64,000 bases of DNA from a virus (Duplodnaviria; Caudoviricetes), in the IMG/VR virus record IMGVR_UViG_3300021256_000095, positions 10,791 through 74,790 of that record, one strand, 5' to 3'. Below, piece after piece: positions 9,542 to 28,248 of this stretch. The stretch's first letter is position 1. The number at the start of each line of letters is the position of its first letter. The notes under the pieces were generated by a model. The model worked only from the letters and a program-made list of their open reading frames with translations, did no database searches and was not told the DNA's origin. The translations under genes were made by a program, and so were the position numbers.

Positions 9542-9647
9542 TTGACAAAAAAGCTCGACGGGTGTATAATGGAAATTTGGCGCGAACTCGACTTCCTCCG
9601 GGCGAGTTCGCGCCAAGGAAAATAGCCATAGTTTTCACTATGACTAT
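9542..9647 (+). ncRNA. Rightward promoter, short hairpin RNA and bidirectional terminator (unit B)
   Basis: TTGACA 9542, TATAAT 9565; 14-bp stem TTGGCGCGAACTCG/CGAGTTCGCGCCAA; terminator 9622-9647; no ORF. Confidence 0.6.
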
Positions 9648-9681
9648 AAGGAAAGGAGGTTTCAATTTTCATCTCGTTGAG

Positions 9682-9760
9682 TGGAGCGAACGGGACTCGA
9701 ACCCGTAGCATAGGTAATAATTTGTCACCCACATGGTCTGTTCCAGTTAGTCATCGCCCC
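9682..9760 (-). tRNA. tRNA-like RNA with alanine-type acceptor stem and non-canonical anticodon arm
   Basis: GGGGCGA/TCGCTCC-A acceptor (G3.U70, A73); T arm ACGGG-TTCGAGT-CCCGT; D-like AACTGG; anticodon loop CAAATTA lacks U33; no encoded CCA. Confidence 0.7.
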
Positions 9761-9811
9761 TTATTTATTTATGACCCCCTACCCCATTGGATAGGGGGAG
9801 TAACCTTTGTA

Positions 9812-10138
9812 CTACTCGGCAATCACGAACCTTGTAGGGTTCTTGCCCTTAGCTTCTATCTTTGTAACTGTCTTATCAGCTACAAGTGGACGCATAAGCG
9901 CAGAAGCTTTCTGGCAAGAGATACCAATCTCTGTACCAATTTCAGTAGCCGTTCTTGCGTGACCATCTGCAAGTATTGCAAGAATATCAGCCTTGATACC
10001 CTCATTAGCTACCTGAACCTTAGTTGGCTTTGAGGACTTTCTATCAAGAGAAGCAATCATCTTCTCAGCGACCTCTCTCATTTCATCTGTGCAACCCTCA
10101 AGTTCCATTGTCTTTGTAAGAAATTCTCTCTTTGTCAT
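9812..10138 (-). CDS. Winged helix-turn-helix protein, paralogue 1
   Basis: RTATEIGTEIGISCQKASALMRPLV HTH plus wing; clearly similar to 12995..13309. Confidence 0.75.
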   Translation of the reverse strand: MTKREFLTKTMELEGCTDEMREVAEKMIASLDRKSSKPTKVQVANEGIKADILAILADGHARTATEIGTEIGISCQKASALMRPLVADKTVTKIEAKGKNPTRFVIAE

Positions 10139-10564
10139 AATACATCTACCTCTTTCTTTTTTAATATTTTTTATTTGTTATCTTATGTACTTATTATAAC
10201 TCTTTTTTATTTAGTTGTCAAGTATTTTTTTTATTTTTTTGAGATTGTTTGTAATGGGTTTTCTCTATTAACCGCCTTGCAAGGTTTAAATTTCAGTCAG
10301 AGGAGTTTTCCGCACTCACTATTTAAACGCTCTCTTTATCTTTTGTAAGTTCATTATATCATAATGGAAAAGGATTGTCAAGACCTTTTTTCAAATTTTT
10401 TTCAACCTTGTGTGTACCTTGACTTCCTTACGCACTTGACAGGGTTTTGTTGCAAGTTTTACCAGCCTTTTCCTATTTGATAATTAAATTATAACAAAAT
10501 TTTTTAGTATTTGCAAGTACAAGATTTTTAGGAAATTTTGTGCATTTTGCACAATAAAAAAAGC

Positions 10565-10660
10565 TTGACAAAAATGGCGCGGCGGGTGTATAATATTAAT
10601 TTGGCGCTCACTCGGGGTTCGCGCCCGGTCGCCAAAAAAGAGGACTTTAATAGTCCTCTT
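10565..10660 (+). ncRNA. Rightward promoter, hairpin RNA, terminator (unit C)
   Basis: TTGACA 10565, TATAAT 10589; TTGGCG...CGCCAA; terminator AAGAGGAC/GTCCTCTT. Confidence 0.55.
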
Positions 10661-10817
10661 CTACAAAATCTTTTACTTCTATTTTATCTATAATCCCTTC
10701 AACAGCAAGCCACCTTGCAAATTCTAACACTTCGGGTTCATCTGTAATCCAGTTTATTTCTTTATCAGCATACTGTTTTAAACGTAAATCTTTAATAGTT
10801 ACAATTTTAGTATCCAT
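10647..10817 (-). CDS. 56-aa hypothetical protein (not in ORF track)
   Basis: MDTKIVTIKDLRLK...; GAAAGAGAGG RBS and own promoter. Confidence 0.65.
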   Translation of the reverse strand: MDTKIVTIKDLRLKQYADKEINWITDEPEVLEFARWLAVEGIIDKIEVKDFVEEDY

Positions 10818-10870
10818 TTGTTATACCTCTCTTTCGTTTTCCTTTATTGTATCATAGGGTTGATTATTTG

Positions 10871-11029
10871 TCAACTATTTTTATGAATAAAATTCATTAA
10901 TTTTTCTTTTGATTTAACCATTTCATTTATTATACATTGAGGGGTTTGTTCTTGTATGCATTGTGCAATATAGTCATTTAGCATAGTAATAATTATTAGT
11001 TCATCTATTGTATTAAAATCATCTTCCAT
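10871..11029 (-). CDS. 52-aa hypothetical protein
   Basis: MEDDFNTIDEL...; its TGA stop lies inside the next TTGACA box. Confidence 0.6.
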   Translation of the reverse strand: MEDDFNTIDELIIITMLNDYIAQCIQEQTPQCIINEMVKSKEKLMNFIHKNS

Positions 11030-11080
11030 TTTATTATATTTTTCTCCTTTTCTTTATTATACTACATTTGCGGTTGTTTG

Positions 11081-11338
11081 TCAACCGCAATATAGTAAAA
11101 TTATAAAATAAATATTCAGTGCTACACTTGATAAGTGCATTACAAGCCCATTTATGTGGCGGTCAACCGCAAGGTCTTTTATAACACCGATAAACGCAAT
11201 CGCAAGTCCGAACCATGCAATAGACAATCCATAAATCATAATGAGAATTACATTGATTACAGTTATTAAGCACCGCAAGTCATTGTATTCAAATCTGTAT
11301 CTTCCTTCGATTTTAAAAAACTCTTTTACTTTTGTCAT
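11081..11338 (-). CDS. Small multi-TM membrane protein
   Basis: Three hydrophobic segments; RBS present. Confidence 0.7.
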   Translation of the reverse strand: MTKVKEFFKIEGRYRFEYNDLRCLITVINVILIMIYGLSIAWFGLAIAFIGVIKDLAVDRHINGLVMHLSSVALNIYFIILLYCG

Positions 11339-11355
11339 AGGCTTTTCCTCTCTTT

Positions 11356-11523
11356 CTATTTGATACTTATTAAACGTAAATAGTTGTCTTTTGCTCTTTG
11401 TTTGCTTAACTGTCTTGTGTTTTTAGGTAAATGCTTTCTTTTTCTTTCGTTATTATTAAAACTGTTATAATACTTTATTAAAAACATTTTCCTTAATTTA
11501 TGTATTTTCATTTTTGAACTCAT
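11356..11523 (-). CDS. Basic 55-aa protein
   Basis: MSSKMKIHKLRK...; RBS and own promoter. Confidence 0.55.
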   Translation of the reverse strand: MSSKMKIHKLRKMFLIKYYNSFNNNERKRKHLPKNTRQLSKQRAKDNYLRLISIK

Positions 11524-11582
11524 TTTTATTTCCTCTCTTTCGTTTTTCTTTATTATATCACAGGGTTGACTAATTGTCAACC

Positions 11583-11783
11583 CTAAACATTTTTTACTAC
11601 AAGGACAGTTTCCTGAAGTCCGTCATTACTTGCAATATACATTTCAAATTGAGTATCCCATACTCTACCGAGTTTGATGAATGTAACCTGTGGGCTATTA
11701 TCCATCATATCAAAGAAGAGTTTTGCGCTCATGAATGTGTTGTTATTTGCTTTAAGCCAATTCTTAATTTCCCATGTGTACAT
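11583..11783 (-). CDS. Hypothetical protein
   Basis: MYTWEIKNWL...; GAAAGAGAGG RBS. Confidence 0.65.
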   Translation of the reverse strand: MYTWEIKNWLKANNNTFMSAKLFFDMMDNSPQVTFIKLGRVWDTQFEMYIASNDGLQETVLVVKNV

Positions 11784-11905
11784 ACGCTTTACCTCTCTTT
11801 CTTCTTTTCTTGAATTAAGTATATCAAAAAAAGAAGTAAAAATCAAGCCGGAATTTTGCACAAATTTTTAGGATAAAATTTGTGCAAAATTTTTTAAAAT
11901 TTTGC

Positions 11906-12001
11906 TTGACAAAAATCTTGAGCCGTGGTATAATTGAATTTTGGCACAACAGCGCGCGCTGTTGTGCCATGAAAAAAGTCGGTTAAGGAAACTTAACCGA
12001 C
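11906..12001 (+). ncRNA. Rightward promoter, perfect 28-bp palindrome, terminator (unit D)
   Basis: TTGACA 11906, TATAAT 11929; TGGCACAACAGCGCGCGCTGTTGTGCCA 11942-11969; terminator 11978-12001. Confidence 0.6.
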
Positions 12002-12021
12002 CAACCGCATCAACTATTATT

Positions 12022-12198
12022 TTATTCTTCCCAATGTTTTATAAGTTCTAAAGAGCCGTCCTTTTGTATTTCATAATGTTCATATCCAAATTTTTTATAC
12101 TTGACTGGAATTTTATTACACACAAGAATAGGTTCTCTATCTACTTCACATTCCCACGGGTCACTAAGTGGTGTACATTTTACAATTAAATATTTCAT
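12022..12198 (-). CDS. 58-aa hypothetical protein
   Basis: MKYLIVKCTPLSDPWECEVDREP...; RBS and own promoter. Confidence 0.65.
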   Translation of the reverse strand: MKYLIVKCTPLSDPWECEVDREPILVCNKIPVKYKKFGYEHYEIQKDGSLELIKHWEE

Positions 12199-12235
12199 TT
12201 TATTTACCTCTCTTCCTTTTGATAAATCTATTATA

Positions 12236-12421
12236 CTATAATTTCACTTTTGTGTCAAGTGCTTTTCTATAAAAATTATCTAATTCTACAAAAGTCATAG
12301 CGCCATTCAAATAACCTTTTACCATAATTCTAAAATACATAGATATTTTATGATCTTTACCAAATCTATTTTCTATCTCTTGCGTCATCCATTTAGTTAA
12401 ACGTACTCTTGAATTTTCCAT
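12236..12421 (-). CDS. Hypothetical protein
   Basis: GAAAGGGG RBS, 61 aa. Confidence 0.55.
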   Translation of the reverse strand: MENSRVRLTKWMTQEIENRFGKDHKISMYFRIMVKGYLNGAMTFVELDNFYRKALDTKVKL

Positions 12422-12581
12422 TTTTACTACCCCTTTCTTTTGATAAACAATCTCTCATAGTTTGTTTCATTTCTTTATATTTTTTTAAGTAGTAATGTTT
12501 ATTCATACGTTCTTTACTTAATTTATAATATACTTTTGCACTCTTATAATAAACGTAAAACATTAGATATTTATTTGTCAT
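12393..12581 (-). CDS. Basic hypothetical protein
   Basis: RBS and own promoter ~12608-12634. Confidence 0.5.
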   Translation of the reverse strand: MTNKYLMFYVYYKSAKVYYKLSKERMNKHYYLKKYKEMKQTMRDCLSKERGSKNGKFKSTFN

Positions 12582-12726
12582 TTTTATTACCCCTTTCCTT
12601 TTTCTTTATTATAACAAATTTTTATTTTCTTGTCAACTATTTTTGCAATAACTACAGTCAATATTTTATTAACTTTTAAAGCAAAGTTAGAGGAAACGAA
12701 CAAATTTCCGCCGGCTTAAAAAATTG

Positions 12727-12838
12727 TTGACAAAAACTTGTAAGTGTAGTATAATTAAGAAAGCGGCTCTGTTGCGGAAGGGACGCCCGCAACAGAGCCG
12801 ACAAAAAGTTGAGCCAAAGGCGGTAAACCTTTGGCTCA
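12727..12838 (+). ncRNA. Rightward promoter, hairpin RNA, terminator (unit E)
   Basis: TTGACA 12727, TATAAT 12750; 14-bp stem CGGCTCTGTTGCGG/CCGCAACAGAGCCG; terminator 12810-12838. Confidence 0.6.
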
Positions 12839-12879
12839 TTTAGGAAAGGAGGATTTTATATCAAACCTTATCTGTATTA

Positions 12880-12952
12880 GTAGGGTAAAGCGGAATCGAA
12901 CCGCTTATCAGCTCGCAACTTCTTGGAGATTTTACCTTTAAACTATACCCTA
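12880..12952 (-). tRNA. tRNA-like RNA without a canonical anticodon loop
   Basis: Perfect acceptor TAGGGTA/TACCCTA; D arm GTTT-AAAGGT-AAAA; T arm AGCGG-TTCGATT-CCGCT; anticodon arm folds only with a bulge and 4-nt loop. Confidence 0.7.
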
Positions 12953-12994
12953 ACCCCCACCCCAACCTTGCGGAGTGGGGGAGTAACTCACAGA

Positions 12995-13309
12995 TTACTC
13001 TGCGATGTGGTAGGTTGCAGGGTTCTTGCCCTTACCCTCTACCTTTACGACACTCTCAATCTGCTTGAGGAGTGCGGCTACCTTTGCGGTTGAGTAACCA
13101 ACCTCGTCAGCGATTTCCCTTGCGGTCATCGGCTCTGCGCCCATAACCTCAACAATTTTCGCCTTGATACCCTCGTTCTCAATCTGCGCCTTTGTCGGCT
13201 TTGAGGACTTTCTATCAAGACTTGCAATAGCCTTTGCCATTACCTCTCTCTCTTCTGAATCCTCTGCAAACATTTCCATAGCCTTTGTGAAAACTTCTCT
13301 CTTTGTCAT
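12995..13309 (-). CDS. Winged helix-turn-helix protein, paralogue 2
   Basis: MTAREIADEVGYSTAKVAALLKQI HTH; shares MTKRE, IASLDRKSSKPTK, NEGIKA, KGKNP and IAE with paralogue 1. Confidence 0.75.
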   Translation of the reverse strand: MTKREVFTKAMEMFAEDSEEREVMAKAIASLDRKSSKPTKAQIENEGIKAKIVEVMGAEPMTAREIADEVGYSTAKVAALLKQIESVVKVEGKGKNPATYHIAE

Positions 13310-13630
13310 AGTACATCTACCTCTTTCTTTTTATTTTTTATTTTGTAAGTTAATTATAACAAATCTTTTTTATTTTGTCAATAGTTTTTTTATTTTTTTT
13401 CGGTTGCGCAACCTTTCGTTTCGGTTTTGTTTTCGTATAACCTGTGGAAGAATATCCTACCCTGAAGTGCGCCAGTCTGCCATTTTTTTAGTTTCGTATT
13501 GAACTCAGAGTGAACACTGGACTGCTCTAAAGTCAACCAATCTCACGAGTTTGGTAGCCGATGTATGACACAAAACCATACATTGAAGAGTTTTTATGAC
13601 TTTGCTTTGTCATTTTCTATATTTATTATA

Positions 13631-13789
13631 TCATAGATTTTCTAATCTGTCAAGCATTTTTTTAAAATCTTTTTTGATTTTATTTCTTGAGGGGTGTTTA
13701 GCATCTTTATGCACCCTCGTACCTGTATTCATATTGTACCATACTCTTTGACTTTTGTCAAGTAGTTTTTTCTTATTTTTTTCAACCAT
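13631..13789 (-). CDS. 52-aa basic protein overlapping two promoters
   Basis: MVEKNKKKLLDKSQRVWYNMNTGTRVHKDAK...; GAAAGAGG RBS. Confidence 0.55.
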   Translation of the reverse strand: MVEKNKKKLLDKSQRVWYNMNTGTRVHKDAKHPSRNKIKKDFKKMLDRLENL

Positions 13790-14003
13790 TTTTTTATCCT
13801 CTTTCCATTTGGTATTTATATTATAACAAATTTTTATTTATTTGTCAACTATTTTTTTATTTATTCTGTGCTTTTTCGGTTTAGCACAGAGAACCGTGGG
13901 AGGTTCTTGCCTCACTTTCTGATATAATTATAGCAAAATTTTATTTGTATGTCAAGCACAAATTTTGGGAAAAATTTTGGTTATTTTGCACAAAAATTTT
14001 TAC

Positions 14004-14107
14004 TTGACAAAAACTTGGCGGTATGGTATAATGGTAAATTTGGCGCTCGCACGGGGAAGGGCACCCGCGCTCGCGCCATCAAAAAATGAGGGCGGATATC
14101 CGCCCTC
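14004..14107 (+). ncRNA. Rightward promoter, hairpin RNA, terminator (unit F)
   Basis: TTGACA 14004, TATAAT 14027; TGGCGC...GCGCCA; terminator GAGGGCGG/CCGCCCTC. Confidence 0.55.
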
Positions 14108-14307
14108 TACTCTCCAAAAATCTTATCCTGACAAGTAGGACACATACCTGAGACAATGCACTCTCTGTCTGTTGCGGACAGATAAGGGAAAGCATTCTGC
14201 ACAAGTGCGCCACTCTCATATTTTTCAAGGTCAGTCAGATTAACTTCAACTGCCCAACTTTCATTACAAAATACACAATTTCCGATAAGATTAACTCTCA
14301 CTCTCAT
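14107..14307 (-). CDS. Small Zn-finger protein
   Basis: CVFC...CPTC; GTG start with RBS. Confidence 0.65.
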   Translation of the reverse strand: MRVRVNLIGNCVFCNESWAVEVNLTDLEKYESGALVQNAFPYLSATDRECIVSGMCPTCQDKIFGE

Positions 14308-14377
14308 TCACCTTTTCCTTTCTTTCTTTTGATACTCTTATTATATCAGAGGGGTTGAGGTTTGTCAACCCCTTTTT

Positions 14378-14650
14378 TCAAATTTTTTCAAGTATCTCGT
14401 CTGCGGTCAACCAACCTACTACTTCACAAGAGGTTTCCCATTTTGATACTATAGTTCCTGCAATTTCAAGGAGACCACTTTTACAACCATAGCTTCCACC
14501 GTGGATTATAGCATCCCACCTATTATTTTTTTCATCACGGACTAATACCTGACGACCGTCATAAAGGTCACGTATAGTAATATTAAATCCACCCTTATTT
14601 ATAAGACCAACCACAAGCTTATTAAGTTCTTCATAATTATACATAATCAT
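14378..14650 (-). CDS. Hypothetical protein
   Basis: GAAAGAGAGG RBS, own promoter. Confidence 0.65.
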   Translation of the reverse strand: MIMYNYEELNKLVVGLINKGGFNITIRDLYDGRQVLVRDEKNNRWDAIIHGGSYGCKSGLLEIAGTIVSKWETSCEVVGWLTADEILEKI

Positions 14651-14773
14651 TACCTCTCTTTCATTTGTTGTATTAAGTATATCACATAAGAATAATATTG
14701 TCAAGCACTTTTTTGCGGGCGCCCGGTTAAGGTGGCGGAGGGGTCGAGTAAAGACCCCTTAACCGCCCAACCG

Positions 14774-14935
14774 CTACTTAACCTTAGCGAGTTCCCTTAT
14801 TTTTGCCACCCTCTTTGGATTATACTTGTAATCATCTTTTACAATAGGGATAAGCTCTATCTTGTAAATTTTACCCTCAATATCTTTAAGAACATCAGTT
14901 CTCATATTTCCTGCTACATACGTTACTTTTCTCAT
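14774..14935 (-). CDS. 53-aa hypothetical protein
   Basis: MRKVTYVAGNMRTDV...; RBS, promoter and downstream hairpin 14725-14764. Confidence 0.6.
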   Translation of the reverse strand: MRKVTYVAGNMRTDVLKDIEGKIYKIELIPIVKDDYKYNPKRVAKIRELAKVK

Positions 14936-15003
14936 ACTCGTTTCCTCTCTTTCTTTATCTTTTGTAAGTTTATTATAACATATTTTATTCGGGGTGTCAA
15001 GTA

Positions 15004-15252
15004 TTAAATATCATATTTTTTCCCAAATTCCATAGCAAATTTTGCAATTTCGTAACTATGAAAAGGAAGATTTATTCTACTTGCACATTCAAGAAGCCAC
15101 GGAAAAACTTGGTCTATTTCATCACACCAGTTAGATTTTTTAAAGTCTGAAAAGAAGAATCTGCAATCAGGATGTTTGGTACTGCCGCCCCATACCTCAA
15201 AAATAGTTTCTCTCGTTTTAAGATTTGAATATAAAACACAATGTCCTATCAT
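15004..15252 (-). CDS. Hypothetical protein
   Basis: 82 aa, RBS and own promoter. Confidence 0.6.
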   Translation of the reverse strand: MIGHCVLYSNLKTRETIFEVWGGSTKHPDCRFFFSDFKKSNWCDEIDQVFPWLLECASRINLPFHSYEIAKFAMEFGKKYDI

Positions 15253-15346
15253 ATTGTTTACCTCTCTTTCACTTTCTATTGTTATTATATCAGATTATAA
15301 TAGGGGTGTCAAGTATTTTTTTTGAAAAAATGCCCGGTCAAAAAAT

Positions 15347-15378
15347 GCGGACTTGCTTTTTAAACTATGCAAGTCCGC
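15347..15378 (-). terminator. Intrinsic terminator after tRNA-Lys
   Basis: GCGGACTTGC/GCAAGTCCGC stem followed by a U-run on the minus strand. Confidence 0.7.
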
Positions 15379-15418
15379 CAAAGGAAAGAAAGGCATATCA
15401 AATTATATCTACTACGAA

Positions 15419-15491
<73 letters not shown>

Positions 15492-15498
15492 CTATTTA

Positions 15499-15633
15499 TC
15501 ACCATTTTGTGCGGTTTGGTGATTTTCTCTTGCGTTCCTCTCTGAGTTCGTCATACCAATCAATGAACCCAGCAATTCCGCAACCTATAACTACTATACA
15601 ATTAACCATTCCAAGAATTATTATACTATTCAT
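15499..15633 (-). CDS. 44-aa single-TM peptide, upstream of tRNA-Lys on the same strand
   Basis: MNSIIILGMVNCIVVIGCGIAGFIDWYDELREERKRK...; RBS and promoter. Confidence 0.6.
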   Translation of the reverse strand: MNSIIILGMVNCIVVIGCGIAGFIDWYDELREERKRKSPNRTKW

Positions 15634-26134: not shown

Positions 26135-26817
26135 ATGGGGTTAGCAGATTTAATCGCTTTATCAACAAATAAAGCTAATCAAAAGATAGGTGTTTCTGAA
26201 GAGCGGTTGCGGGCTTGTTTGCCTGAATTAAGAAAAGCAATAAGTTTTTATAGAGAATATCCTGACATGTATATAGATTTTTGTGTCGAATGCAGTGGCG
26301 GAAAAGGTAAAGTTTTACATTTATATACTTATCAAAGAGTTTTTTTAAGACAAGCTATGCGTTATCGACACGTATATGCAGTTTACCCGCGTGCTTATTC
26401 TAAATCATTTTTATCAGTATTAGTTTTAATGCTTAGATGTATCTTTTATCCAGGATGTCATTTGTTTGTTACTACTGGCGGTAAGGAACAAGCTACAGGA
26501 ATTGTTCGAGAGAAAGCTGAGGAATTATGTAAACTTGTTCCAGGATTAGCAAATGAAGTAAATTTTGACAGAGGTAAATCTAAATCTTCAAAAGAAGAAT
26601 TTAGTTATTTATTTAAAAATGGAAGTATTCTTGATGTTATGGCCGCAAGACAAAGTTCGAGAGGTCGAAGAGCTACTGGAGGACTTATAGAAGAATGCGT
26701 ACTTGTGGATGGTACACTTCTTAATGAAGTAATAATCCCAACTATGAACGTAGATAGACTTCTTTCAGATGGCACTAGACGAGAGGAAGAAATCATTAAT
26801 AAGAGTCAAATTTATGT
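26135..26817 (+). CDS. terL: Terminase large subunit, exon 1 (ATPase)
   Basis: YPRAYSKS Walker A-like, LIEEC Walker B-like; splices to give KSQIYV-TTAGWKNTFAYEKL. Confidence 0.9.
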
Positions 26818-27185
26818 TAATTTTTTTGGTCAAAACGTTACAAAGTTGATTGTATTAAAAATGAATTAACTTATCAAGATTATGCGCTTGAATATAAAAA
26901 ATTAACGGAGGAACAAAAAAAATAAATTAGCATCGCTATTAAGAGATTAATAGTTGTAAGCCATTGAATTGCTGGAAAGCCCTAACGTAAAGACGAGGGT
27001 AATCAGCAGCCAAACTCGAAAGAGAAGGTTCAACGACTATCCCGAAAGGGAGTACACTCAAGTGAGTGGAAGTGGTGGCCCCCTACTTGAAAGAGAGGGT
27101 GAAGATATAGTCTACTCTGTATAGAAATATACAGCAGTTCATTAGAGAACGCATACGGATTAACGACCCGTATGGAATAAAAAGG
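26818..27185 (+). mobile_element. Group I self-splicing intron (IA2-like), 368 nt
   Basis: Exon ends in U, intron ends in G; P1 26814-26823/26924-26933 with U.G at the splice site; P GAATTGCTGGAA, Q AATCAGCAG, R TCAACGACTA, S AAGATATAGTCT; removal restores a 581-aa frame. Confidence 0.93.
26834..26950 (+). pseudogene. Probable C-terminal remnant of an intron-encoded homing endonuclease in the P1 loop
   Basis: Reads KRYKVDCIKNELTYQDYALEYKKLTEEQK, then with one A fewer NKLASLLRD-stop; no start codon or RBS. Confidence 0.45.
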
Positions 27186-28248
27186 AACTACAGCAGGCTG
27201 GAAAAATACATTCGCTTATGAAAAATTAATGATGATTTTACTTGAACAAGTAACAAATAGTGAAAGTTCAGTGGTAATGGGGGGAACATGGCGGATTCCA
27301 GTTGCAGAAGGCTTGTTAGCTAAAAATTTTATTCAACAGTTGAAGCTTGATGGAACATATAATGATAGTTCATTTGGAAGAGAATATGAATCTGAATGGA
27401 GCGGAGACGCGGAAAATGCTTATTTCTCGTCAGAGATTTTTGATAAATATCGTATTCTTTTACAGCCAGAATATGAATTTAGCGGAAGAAGTAGTAAAAC
27501 CGCATATTATGTGCTTGGTATAGACGTTGGTAGAAAAGGTTGTACTACAGAATGTGTAGTAATTAAAGTAACGCCGCAACCGCAAGGAACCTCACTGAAG
27601 TCTGTTGTAAATATATATTCCTGGGAAGAAGAACATTTTGAACAGCAAGCTATAAATATTAAAAAATTATTTTATAAATATAAAGCAAGAGTTTGTGCTA
27701 TTGATGCAAATGGTCTTGGTATTGGACTCATAGACTATATGATTAAAACTCAAATAGATCCCGAAACTGGAGATGTGTTACCGCCTTTTGGGATTGATAA
27801 TATTGCAGATTATCCAGAGTATAAAAAATATAAAACTCCTGAAACTGAGAAAGATGCTATGTATCTTATTAAGGCGAATGCTCCTATTAACACAGAAGCA
27901 CATAGTTATGTACAAACTCAATTATCAAGTGGAAAAGTTAAGTTTTTAATAGATGAAACTACTGCAAAATTAAAATTAATGGATACTAAATTAGGACAAG
28001 GAATGACTCCTGAAAAGAGAGCAGAATATTTAATGCCTTTTACTCTTACTACTTCATTAAGAGAACAAATGCTAAATTTAGTAGAAGATAATGAAGGTGT
28101 TAATATTATATTAAAACAATCTTCAAGAGGTACTCCTAAAGATAAGTTTTCTGCTTTTGAATATGGGATGTTGTTTATAAAGAAAGAAGAAGAAAAGAAA
28201 CATAGAAGAAAAGGTCTTGGTATAGCTGATTTAATGTTATTTAATTAA
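27186..28248 (+). CDS. terL: Terminase large subunit, exon 2 (nuclease)
   Basis: YVLGIDVGR RNase H-like motif; KDKFSAFEYG. Confidence 0.9.

Follow-up and report, generated by a model that had tools for sequence, protein, structure and literature searches.

A conserved anti-Shine-Dalgarno-like box in the trailers of phage tRNA and tRNA-like elements, a candidate for pairing with ribosome-binding sites

The window analyzed here, a 64,000-nt stretch of a 74.8-kb phage record, contains three minus-strand cassettes that carry a short pyrimidine box. The first gene of cassette 1 is a winged-helix (MarR-like) ORF of 108 residues (9812..10138) with a consensus promoter at 10193-10221. Immediately past its stop codon lies a GC-rich hairpin without a U-tract (hairpin 1, 9775..9798), which is kept in relatives and would, upon the presumed RNase P cleavage, likely cap the 3′ end of the mRNA. 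It is followed by a degenerate tRNA-like element (9682..9760), with weak tmRNA/tRNA matches, which has an acceptor stem with G3:U70 and A73 and an intact T arm, and lacks a usable anticodon loop. An A-rich linker (9661..9681), the 5′ part of the trailer, leads to the canonical box 1 (ACCTCCTTTCCTT / ACCUCCUUUCCUU, 9648..9660) and then to an intrinsic terminator composed of hairpin 2 and a U-tract (9615..9647); hairpin 2 contains a U.G pair and therefore forms on the sense strand only. The adjacent hairpin 3 (9577..9616, minus strand) is also the first structure of a predicted plus-strand counter-transcript, and a counter-oriented promoter with a 12/12 consensus (9542..9570, plus strand) is aimed at the box.

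Cassette 2 has a similar organization. Its winged-helix ORF of 104 residues (12995..13309) is paralogous to that of cassette 1, with 52% identity, and its degenerate tRNA-like element (12881..12952) scores 27 bits against the Rfam tRNA model, below the gathering score of 29. The canonical box 2 (CCTCCTTTCCT / CCUCCUUUCCU, 12842..12852) has AAAU in front, and two terminator hairpins (12810-12838 and 12764-12800), each with a U-rich tail, occupy 12764..12838; the counter-oriented promoter, again 12/12, is at 12727..12755 on the plus strand. In the third cassette, a small hydrophobic ORF of 44 residues with a private SD (15499..15633) is predicted to be transcribed together with a tRNA-Lys(UUU) whose CCA is not encoded (15419..15491), followed by the third box (CCTTTCTTTCCTT, 15393-15381) and a terminator hairpin with a U-tract (15338..15379), all on the minus strand. 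Across the three cassettes, the box lies 21-28 nt past the 3′ end of the tRNA or tRNA-like element, and the hairpin with its U-tract starts 0-4 nt past the box. The coordinates, strand and placement of the three boxes between tRNA or tRNA-like element and terminator, as first read in the initial annotation, are all confirmed.

The same annotation pointed out a likeness to the 3′ end of Firmicutes 16S rRNA, which is borne out by an identity of 9-10 nt, now seen as part of a non-coding, conserved element on the presumably transcribed strand. Over these nucleotides, the box is identical with the anti-SD segment of 16S tails of the Bacillota type, which the actual host may or may not share. The AAAU flank upstream of the box differs from the rRNA sequence, the identity stops at 9-10 nt and a search for SSU rRNA gave no match, so the box does not appear to be a genuine 16S rRNA fragment. 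A mimic of the 16S tail cannot discriminate phage RBSs from host RBSs by its sequence alone.

Within the 74.8-kb record, the exact 10-mer CCUCCUUUCC occurs twice, both times in the trailer context. Allowing one mismatch gives nine matches against 1.9 expected, the seven others being ordinary SDs viewed from the opposite strand. Further comparison revealed CCUCCUUUCC in exact form in ~20 distinct cassettes of related phages, uncultured members of one family from rumen and gut, usually with AAAU before and U after it. The box is exact in all related cassettes with a tRNA or tRNA-like element, including those fetched through the neighbouring protein without regard to the box, and in a viral-contig scan that left the 5-nt core unconstrained all matches in the family context still had CCUCC. 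This invariance contrasts with the divergence of the surroundings, which affects tRNA body and linker, the sequence of the hairpin, and also the neighbouring protein (46-82% identity). The distance from box to T arm stays constant at 32-38 nt despite the varying linker sequence, and real tRNA-Lys and degenerate tRNA-like elements swap in front of the same trailer across cassettes. Conservation in related cassettes, suggested early on as a check, thus holds, and is the strongest sign that the box exceeds chance. A coding explanation is ruled out on both strands: AUGs in the sense linker are present in only 7 of 20 members, spread over all three frames, and no conserved start was found on the other strand among the members examined. 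The box is predicted to be mostly unpaired, at a mean probability of 0.45-0.95 for most members and 0.31 for one. No near-identical phages were found among those in GenBank, the exact T-arm and tRNA-Lys patterns of the window have no matches in IMG/VR, and no cultured relative carries the box; the nearest portal homologues, from Phage Phass-1 and Enterococcus phage EF1, are without the module.

The third box had been described as a weaker copy. It proved instead to be a distinct flavour with one inserted U that recurs downstream of tRNA-Lys in four or more diverged phages (G006/L152, L163/L249, L206 and the window). This inserted-U flavour is the complement of GAAAGAGAGG, the private SD of the family's early genes, of which the early sense strand of this genome has 14 copies; in the window, the private-flavour sequence CCUUUCUUUCC (15383..15393) complements GAAAGAGAGG with one G.U pair. 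Late genes use the canonical GGAGG, with AAAGGAGGAUU as the phage late RBS, and this early/late split of SDs holds across the whole family. The complements actually seen for the boxes are the phage's own late RBS and early RBS. The predicted duplexes of the two canonical boxes reach -18.9 and -21.1 kcal/mol on the canonical RBS and -13.0 and -11.0 kcal/mol on the private RBS, whereas the Lys box gives -16.5 kcal/mol on the private versus -13.7 on the canonical RBS. In these predictions, each flavour pairs more strongly with its own SD class, so that the energies are reciprocal. Moreover, the private flavour varies between C and U where the target has G, a change tolerated in the sense RNA as a G.U pair. 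One complete genome of the family, G006, has the private flavour only. SD pairing is favoured because the second flavour matches the phage's other SD class, and judged from sequence we consider it an even prospect that the box is an SD-pairing element in a tRNA-trailer RNA of the transcribed (minus) strand. Such pairing may act on late and early messages of the phage itself no less than on messages of the host.

The initial annotation noted a perfect plus-strand SD with no usable start, which holds for cassettes 1 and 2: the first start codon in cassette 1 lies 17 nt past GGAGG, and cassette 2 has none. A start codon at 4-12 nt is missing in 13 of 20 family members, and the starts in the remaining members mostly open ORFs of 1-7 codons, with two continuing into tRNA antisense. 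Plus-strand transcription is plausible because consensus counter-promoters aim at the box, 77-90 nt away in the window (9542-9570 and 12727-12755) and also present in 12 of the 19 canonical cassettes. A functional plus strand, which we regard as unlikely, would yield counter-promoter RNAs with one or two 5′ hairpins followed by a perfect SD without an ORF, where both flavours are genuine SD forms of these phages. The SD might bind 30S and stabilize the antisense RNA like STAB-SD, with which the polypurine 5′ stabilizer of phage SP82 is grouped, or might divert ribosomes as a decoy or serve as an antidote against the sense trailer. Bacillota are known to possess STAB-SD elements (PMC4113751, PMC5737220), and the box, if read on the plus strand, resembles them as an ORF-less SD on a predicted transcript; unlike them, it is remote from the 5′ end, with ~80 nt between it and the predicted start, and persists where the promoter is missing. 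The cassettes that keep the box with no counter-promoter are 7 of the 19 with the canonical flavour and 4 of the 5 with the private one, three of the window's five counter-promoter units have no box, and the variants of CCUUUCUUUCC would be weakened SDs on the plus strand, where the same C/U change becomes an A-C mismatch. A sense-strand RNA element is favoured because the C/U variation faces the target G and the box outlives the missing counter-promoter. The data add nothing for the GGA protein site on the plus strand that had been offered as an alternative. A sense-strand promoter overlapping the box was rejected, as its spacing misfits in every copy.

Three further explanations concern the sense strand itself. 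The box could be a sequence-specific protein site or a signal for processing or termination, its anti-SD likeness being incidental or a protein decoy; candidate binders include a KH- or S1-domain protein, a cold-shock protein, Era-like recognition of the 16S tail, or a phage factor. A 15-nt invariant element at fixed spacing to tRNA and hairpin is typical of protein sites, and the RNA partner of the box is a predicted one, but this reading, which we hold to be rather unlikely, leaves unexplained why the sole variant flavour exactly complements the second SD class and why C/U is tolerated opposite G. Alternatively, the box might act in cis only, folding onto the SD of its own mRNA or of a downstream read-through gene until the repression is lifted by a cut at the tRNA-like element. 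Precedents exist in the icaR 3′-UTR anti-SD of S. aureus (PMC3868564) and the hbs 5′/3′-UTR interaction of B. subtilis (PMC5737220), both resembling the phage box as an anti-SD-like motif within the 3′ UTR of a Bacillota-type transcript; the box indeed forms part of the 3′ UTR in winged-helix or small-ORF mRNAs, and generic pairing with the RBS of its own mRNA is possible at -8 to -12 kcal/mol. Unlike in icaR and hbs, cognate-specific pairing was not found and a tRNA-like cleavage module lies between box and mRNA. Extended pairing of 5′ UTR with trailer was rejected, since cognate pairs (-10.0 kcal/mol) are no better than non-cognate ones (-9.9 kcal/mol). Moreover, the flavour is not tied to the SD of the cassette gene, as L091 combines a private SD with a canonical box, and in L040 the box comes after tRNAs that belong to tRNA arrays and have no gene upstream, which makes action confined to cis quite improbable. 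Short pyrimidine runs commonly precede terminators, and the box might thus be a functionless chance run or the passive remnant of a captured host tRNA operon; this is barely credible against a 10-15-mer that is exact across many diverged cassettes with drifting flanks. Among 185,579 bacterial and archaeal species genomes, the arrangement gave only eight matches, two of them on the same phage contig, and on this ground an origin from a host tRNA operon was rejected. Pairing of the box with a GGAGG in the loop of hairpin 3 was also discarded, being present in cassette 1 only and missing in cassette 2 and relatives, and nothing supported the further ideas of a toxin or Era decoy, an RNase P guide or an R-loop primer.

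In the SD-pairing reading, each cassette would produce one early transcript from its consensus promoter, comprising the gene, the GC hairpin, tRNA-Lys or the tRNA-like element, an A-rich linker of ~25 nt, the pyrimidine box and the terminator. The transcript is probably cut in three, because the tRNA-like part kept just those elements that RNase P and RNase Z need, namely the acceptor and T arm. Such processing would yield a hairpin-capped mRNA, a tRNA-like RNA and, as the third piece, a 65-110-nt trailer whose single-stranded 5′ arm, in front of the terminator stem, would carry the box. The unencoded CCA and the retention of just the acceptor and T arm suggest release by tRNA 3′ processing. 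We propose that the canonical flavour (AAAU-CCUCCUUUCC-U) would pair with the canonical RBS of phage late genes and presumably also of a Bacillota host, and the inserted-U flavour with GAAAGAGAGG, the private RBS of early genes; RBSs occluded by such pairing would come under class-specific translational control. The anti-SD role suggested initially for the trailers is supported in part, in that the box is conserved, non-coding, mostly unpaired by prediction and situated in a tRNA 3′ trailer, and is amended in that the third box is not a weak copy. Trailer stability and trans action, together with the direction and the time of any effect, are parts of the model that we infer. RNAs with a 5′ monophosphate are substrates of RNase J1 in Bacillota, and the trailer may be short-lived because such an end would expose it to this enzyme. 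The regulatory logic is also awkward because early-type promoters drive both flavours. A two-channel switch is conceivable, though doubtful: early trailers would mask canonical RBSs, namely those of host messages and of late messages made prematurely, and early genes would escape because the pairing of their private SD (GAGAGG) with the mimic is weaker by 6-10 kcal/mol. The private-flavour trailer would later damp early genes, and antisense RNA from the counter-promoters would clear the mimics once late proteins are needed. If true, the model would give phages an RNA-only means of sorting messages by type of ribosome-binding site, assign non-decoding phage tRNA-like elements a function as processing handles that release regulatory RNAs, and account for the odd SD of early genes across a whole phage family. 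It is directly testable in a Bacillota host by matched and compensatory reporters.

Literature searches found no described phage tRNA-trailer anti-SD RNA, although several known systems share parts of the design. In Escherichia coli, the 3′ETS of glyW-cysT-leuZ (3′ETS-leuZ) is reportedly a regulatory RNA freed from a tRNA trailer by tRNA processing, which sponges sRNAs with the assistance of Hfq. Likewise, the phage box lies within the 3′ trailer of a tRNA transcript, ahead of the terminator, and would be part of a regulatory RNA from that trailer if the processing takes place; however, 3′ETS-leuZ acts on sRNAs in a proteobacterium, whereas the predicted partners of the box are ribosome-binding sites. 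Phage control through ribosome-binding sites is exemplified by the T4 endoribonuclease RegB and the translational repressor RegA (PMC1702504, PMC3014915), which govern a whole temporal message class at its RBSs, as proposed for the box. RegB and RegA are proteins that cleave or bind RNA, whereas the box would act as an RNA complement and, if the model is true, would be their RNA counterpart. The C-rich SD-occluding sRNAs of Bacillota, RsaE/RoxS and the RNAIII type (PMC6158497, PMC8216469, PMC5419742), provide another parallel, in that RsaE/RoxS have a single-stranded pyrimidine-rich motif before the terminator stem that is complementary to G-rich SD regions, as predicted for the box. The box has no Rfam match at the gathering score that would indicate RsaE/RoxS homology, and matches with E-values up to 10 were at chance level. 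RsaE/RoxS display CCC/UCCC motifs, whereas the phage box copies the 16S tail over 9-10 nt, is phage-encoded, resides in a tRNA trailer instead of a gene of its own, and comes in two flavours for two SD classes.

The initial annotation had placed three pyrimidine-rich anti-Shine-Dalgarno (anti-SD) elements, here termed boxes, between tRNA or tRNA-like elements and terminator hairpins, and all three were found at these positions on the transcribed (minus) strand. Two of them (9648-9660 and 12842-12852) carry the canonical 10-mer and sit in paralogous cassettes, which share the order of winged-helix ORF (52% identical within the pair), GC hairpin, degenerate tRNA-like element, linker, box and two hairpins; the exact 10-mer has only these two sites in the 74.8-kb record. 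The third box (~15381-15393), of a second, private flavour, lies behind a genuine tRNA-Lys(UUU). The double terminator at 12754-12837 (minus strand) reaches 27 bits with the Rfam model of the Bacillus SR6 type I antitoxin, short of that model's gathering score of 55, probably a likeness of shape only. Eleven more same-strand tRNA genes, located outside the window (G000:C1:164-5942), have trailers mostly devoid of a box, and the tRNA-Asn trailer in this group has a CU-repeat loop.

The window corresponds to bases 10791-74790 of an uncultured virus record with an estimated completeness of 57%. Its minus-strand genes, up to ~23.6 kb, are organised in numerous short early cassettes, all of which have their own consensus promoter and terminator, and are followed by the plus-strand structural genes. 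Since the portal homologues are confined to phages of Bacillota (e.g. Enterococcus, Bacillus, Lactococcus, Clostridioides) and the related contigs derive from metagenomes of rumen and gut, we infer a Bacillota host. The late/packaging region contains a group I intron at 26914-27134 (plus strand; 94 bits with Rfam RF00028), flanked by ORFs 26135-26869 and 27229-28248. The intron probably splits one gene.

The early and late genes differ in their SD sequences. The early genes (1-23600, minus strand) use the private SD GAAAGAGAGG, with 14 occurrences on the early sense strand, versus the canonical GGAGG of the late genes (23700-60000, plus strand). GAGAGG or AAGAGG precedes 29 of the 64 early genes and GGAGG only five, whereas GGAG or GGAGG precedes 24 of the 30 late genes and GAGAGG none. 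The phage family as a whole shows this split, which is also present in five related records and further loci (including G001-G006 and L249).

Judged by complementarity, each box flavour mirrors one of these two classes of ribosome-binding site (RBS). Compared to the canonical box, the tRNA-Lys trailer box carries an inserted U and has U in place of one C, and is predicted to pair with the early RBS over 12 uninterrupted base pairs at -16.5 kcal/mol, against -13.0 kcal/mol with a bulge for the canonical box. A perfect complement of the early RBS, CCUCUCUUUCC, occupies the same place behind tRNA-Lys in the complete 146-kb relative G006 (= L152/L240) and in L163/L249, and the U variant recurs in L206; the tRNAs and linkers of these relatives have diverged. 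Together with its AAAU flank, the canonical box is the complement of AAAGGAGGAUU, the RBS used by the major late genes. The match of flavour to RBS class, drawn from few lineages and predicted energies only, is the principal new support for SD pairing. Two private-flavour cassettes (L249 ~6540 and L206 ~850, sense strand) also have a second anti-SD-like run, GACCUCCCC, in the 5' leader directly ahead of tRNA-Lys.

Relatives retrieved via the winged-helix protein, independently of the box, bore out the conservation that the initial annotation had proposed to check: the exact box is present in every one with a tRNA or tRNA-like element after the gene (L001, L016, L017, L019-21, L022, L029, L031, L032/33). 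Pattern scans added further cassettes, giving ~20 distinct ones after removal of near-duplicates. The element ahead of the box varies among tRNA-Lys(UUU), tRNA-Lys(CUU), other tRNAs and tRNA-like elements of 70 to ~170 nt, the latter retaining the acceptor stem and T arm, with G3:U70 and A73 in several. The linker is variable in sequence and constrained in length (32-38 nt from T arm to box), and the hairpin 3' of the box forms in every case from unrelated sequences. The conserved stretch reaches AAAU on the 5' side and U on the 3' side; a viral-contig scan with the 5-nt core unconstrained returned CCUCC in all family-context matches, and neither strand offers a coding explanation for the element. 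The arrangement is nearly missing from 185,579 bacterial and archaeal species (one genome per species), and is therefore a phage module rather than a captured host trailer. In L019 (2070-2240), L032 (1875-2000) and L017 (2120-2700), the tRNA-like element is enlarged to 130-170 nt yet keeps G3:U70 and A73, and could thus be mini-tmRNA-like; within a 217-nt spacer, L017 has a second tRNA-like fold in which anticodon-loop position 33 is a G.

The cassette layout, in which a hairpin lacking a U-tract directly follows the stop codon and precedes the tRNA-like handle and the trailer with its terminator, suggests three separate products. From the established requirements of RNase P and RNase Z, both enzymes are predicted to cut the transcript at the handle. 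The box could instead act in cis by pairing with the RBS of the mRNA that carries it; however, cognate pairs score no differently from non-cognate ones, and box flavour is independent of the SD of the cassette gene. A function of the plus strand is suggested by promoters matching the consensus at 12/12 positions that aim at the canonical boxes (9542-9570 and 12727-12755, plus strand), an arrangement shared by 12 of 19 canonical relatives; a plus-strand RNA would bear a perfect SD without an ORF. Against this, seven of the 19 canonical and four of five private-flavour cassettes have no such promoter, and of the window's five counter-promoter units, three lack a box. Moreover, the sole variable position is C or U facing a target G, a change that a sense-strand RNA duplex tolerates but that impairs a plus-strand SD, and thus fits the sense strand better.

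Altogether, the interpretation in the initial annotation is supported in part: the box likely acts as an anti-SD RNA, and we give SD pairing by the sense strand roughly an even chance. Damping of host translation is one possible role; the phage's own messages are as plausible targets as those of the host. Known pyrimidine-rich RNAs that occlude SDs are RsaE/RoxS, RNAIII and the icaR 3' UTR, and a known regulatory RNA from a tRNA trailer is 3'ETS-leuZ; the cassettes, as proposed from sequence, would resemble the former in occlusion and the latter in origin. Rfam has no matching family, and literature searches brought up no account of a phage module of this kind. Perfect consensus promoters oppose early transcription units at five plus-strand sites (9542-9570, 10565-10594, 11906-11934, 12727-12755 and 14004-14032), each followed by a GC hairpin beginning with UUUGGCG, and are candidate insulators or sources of antisense RNA.
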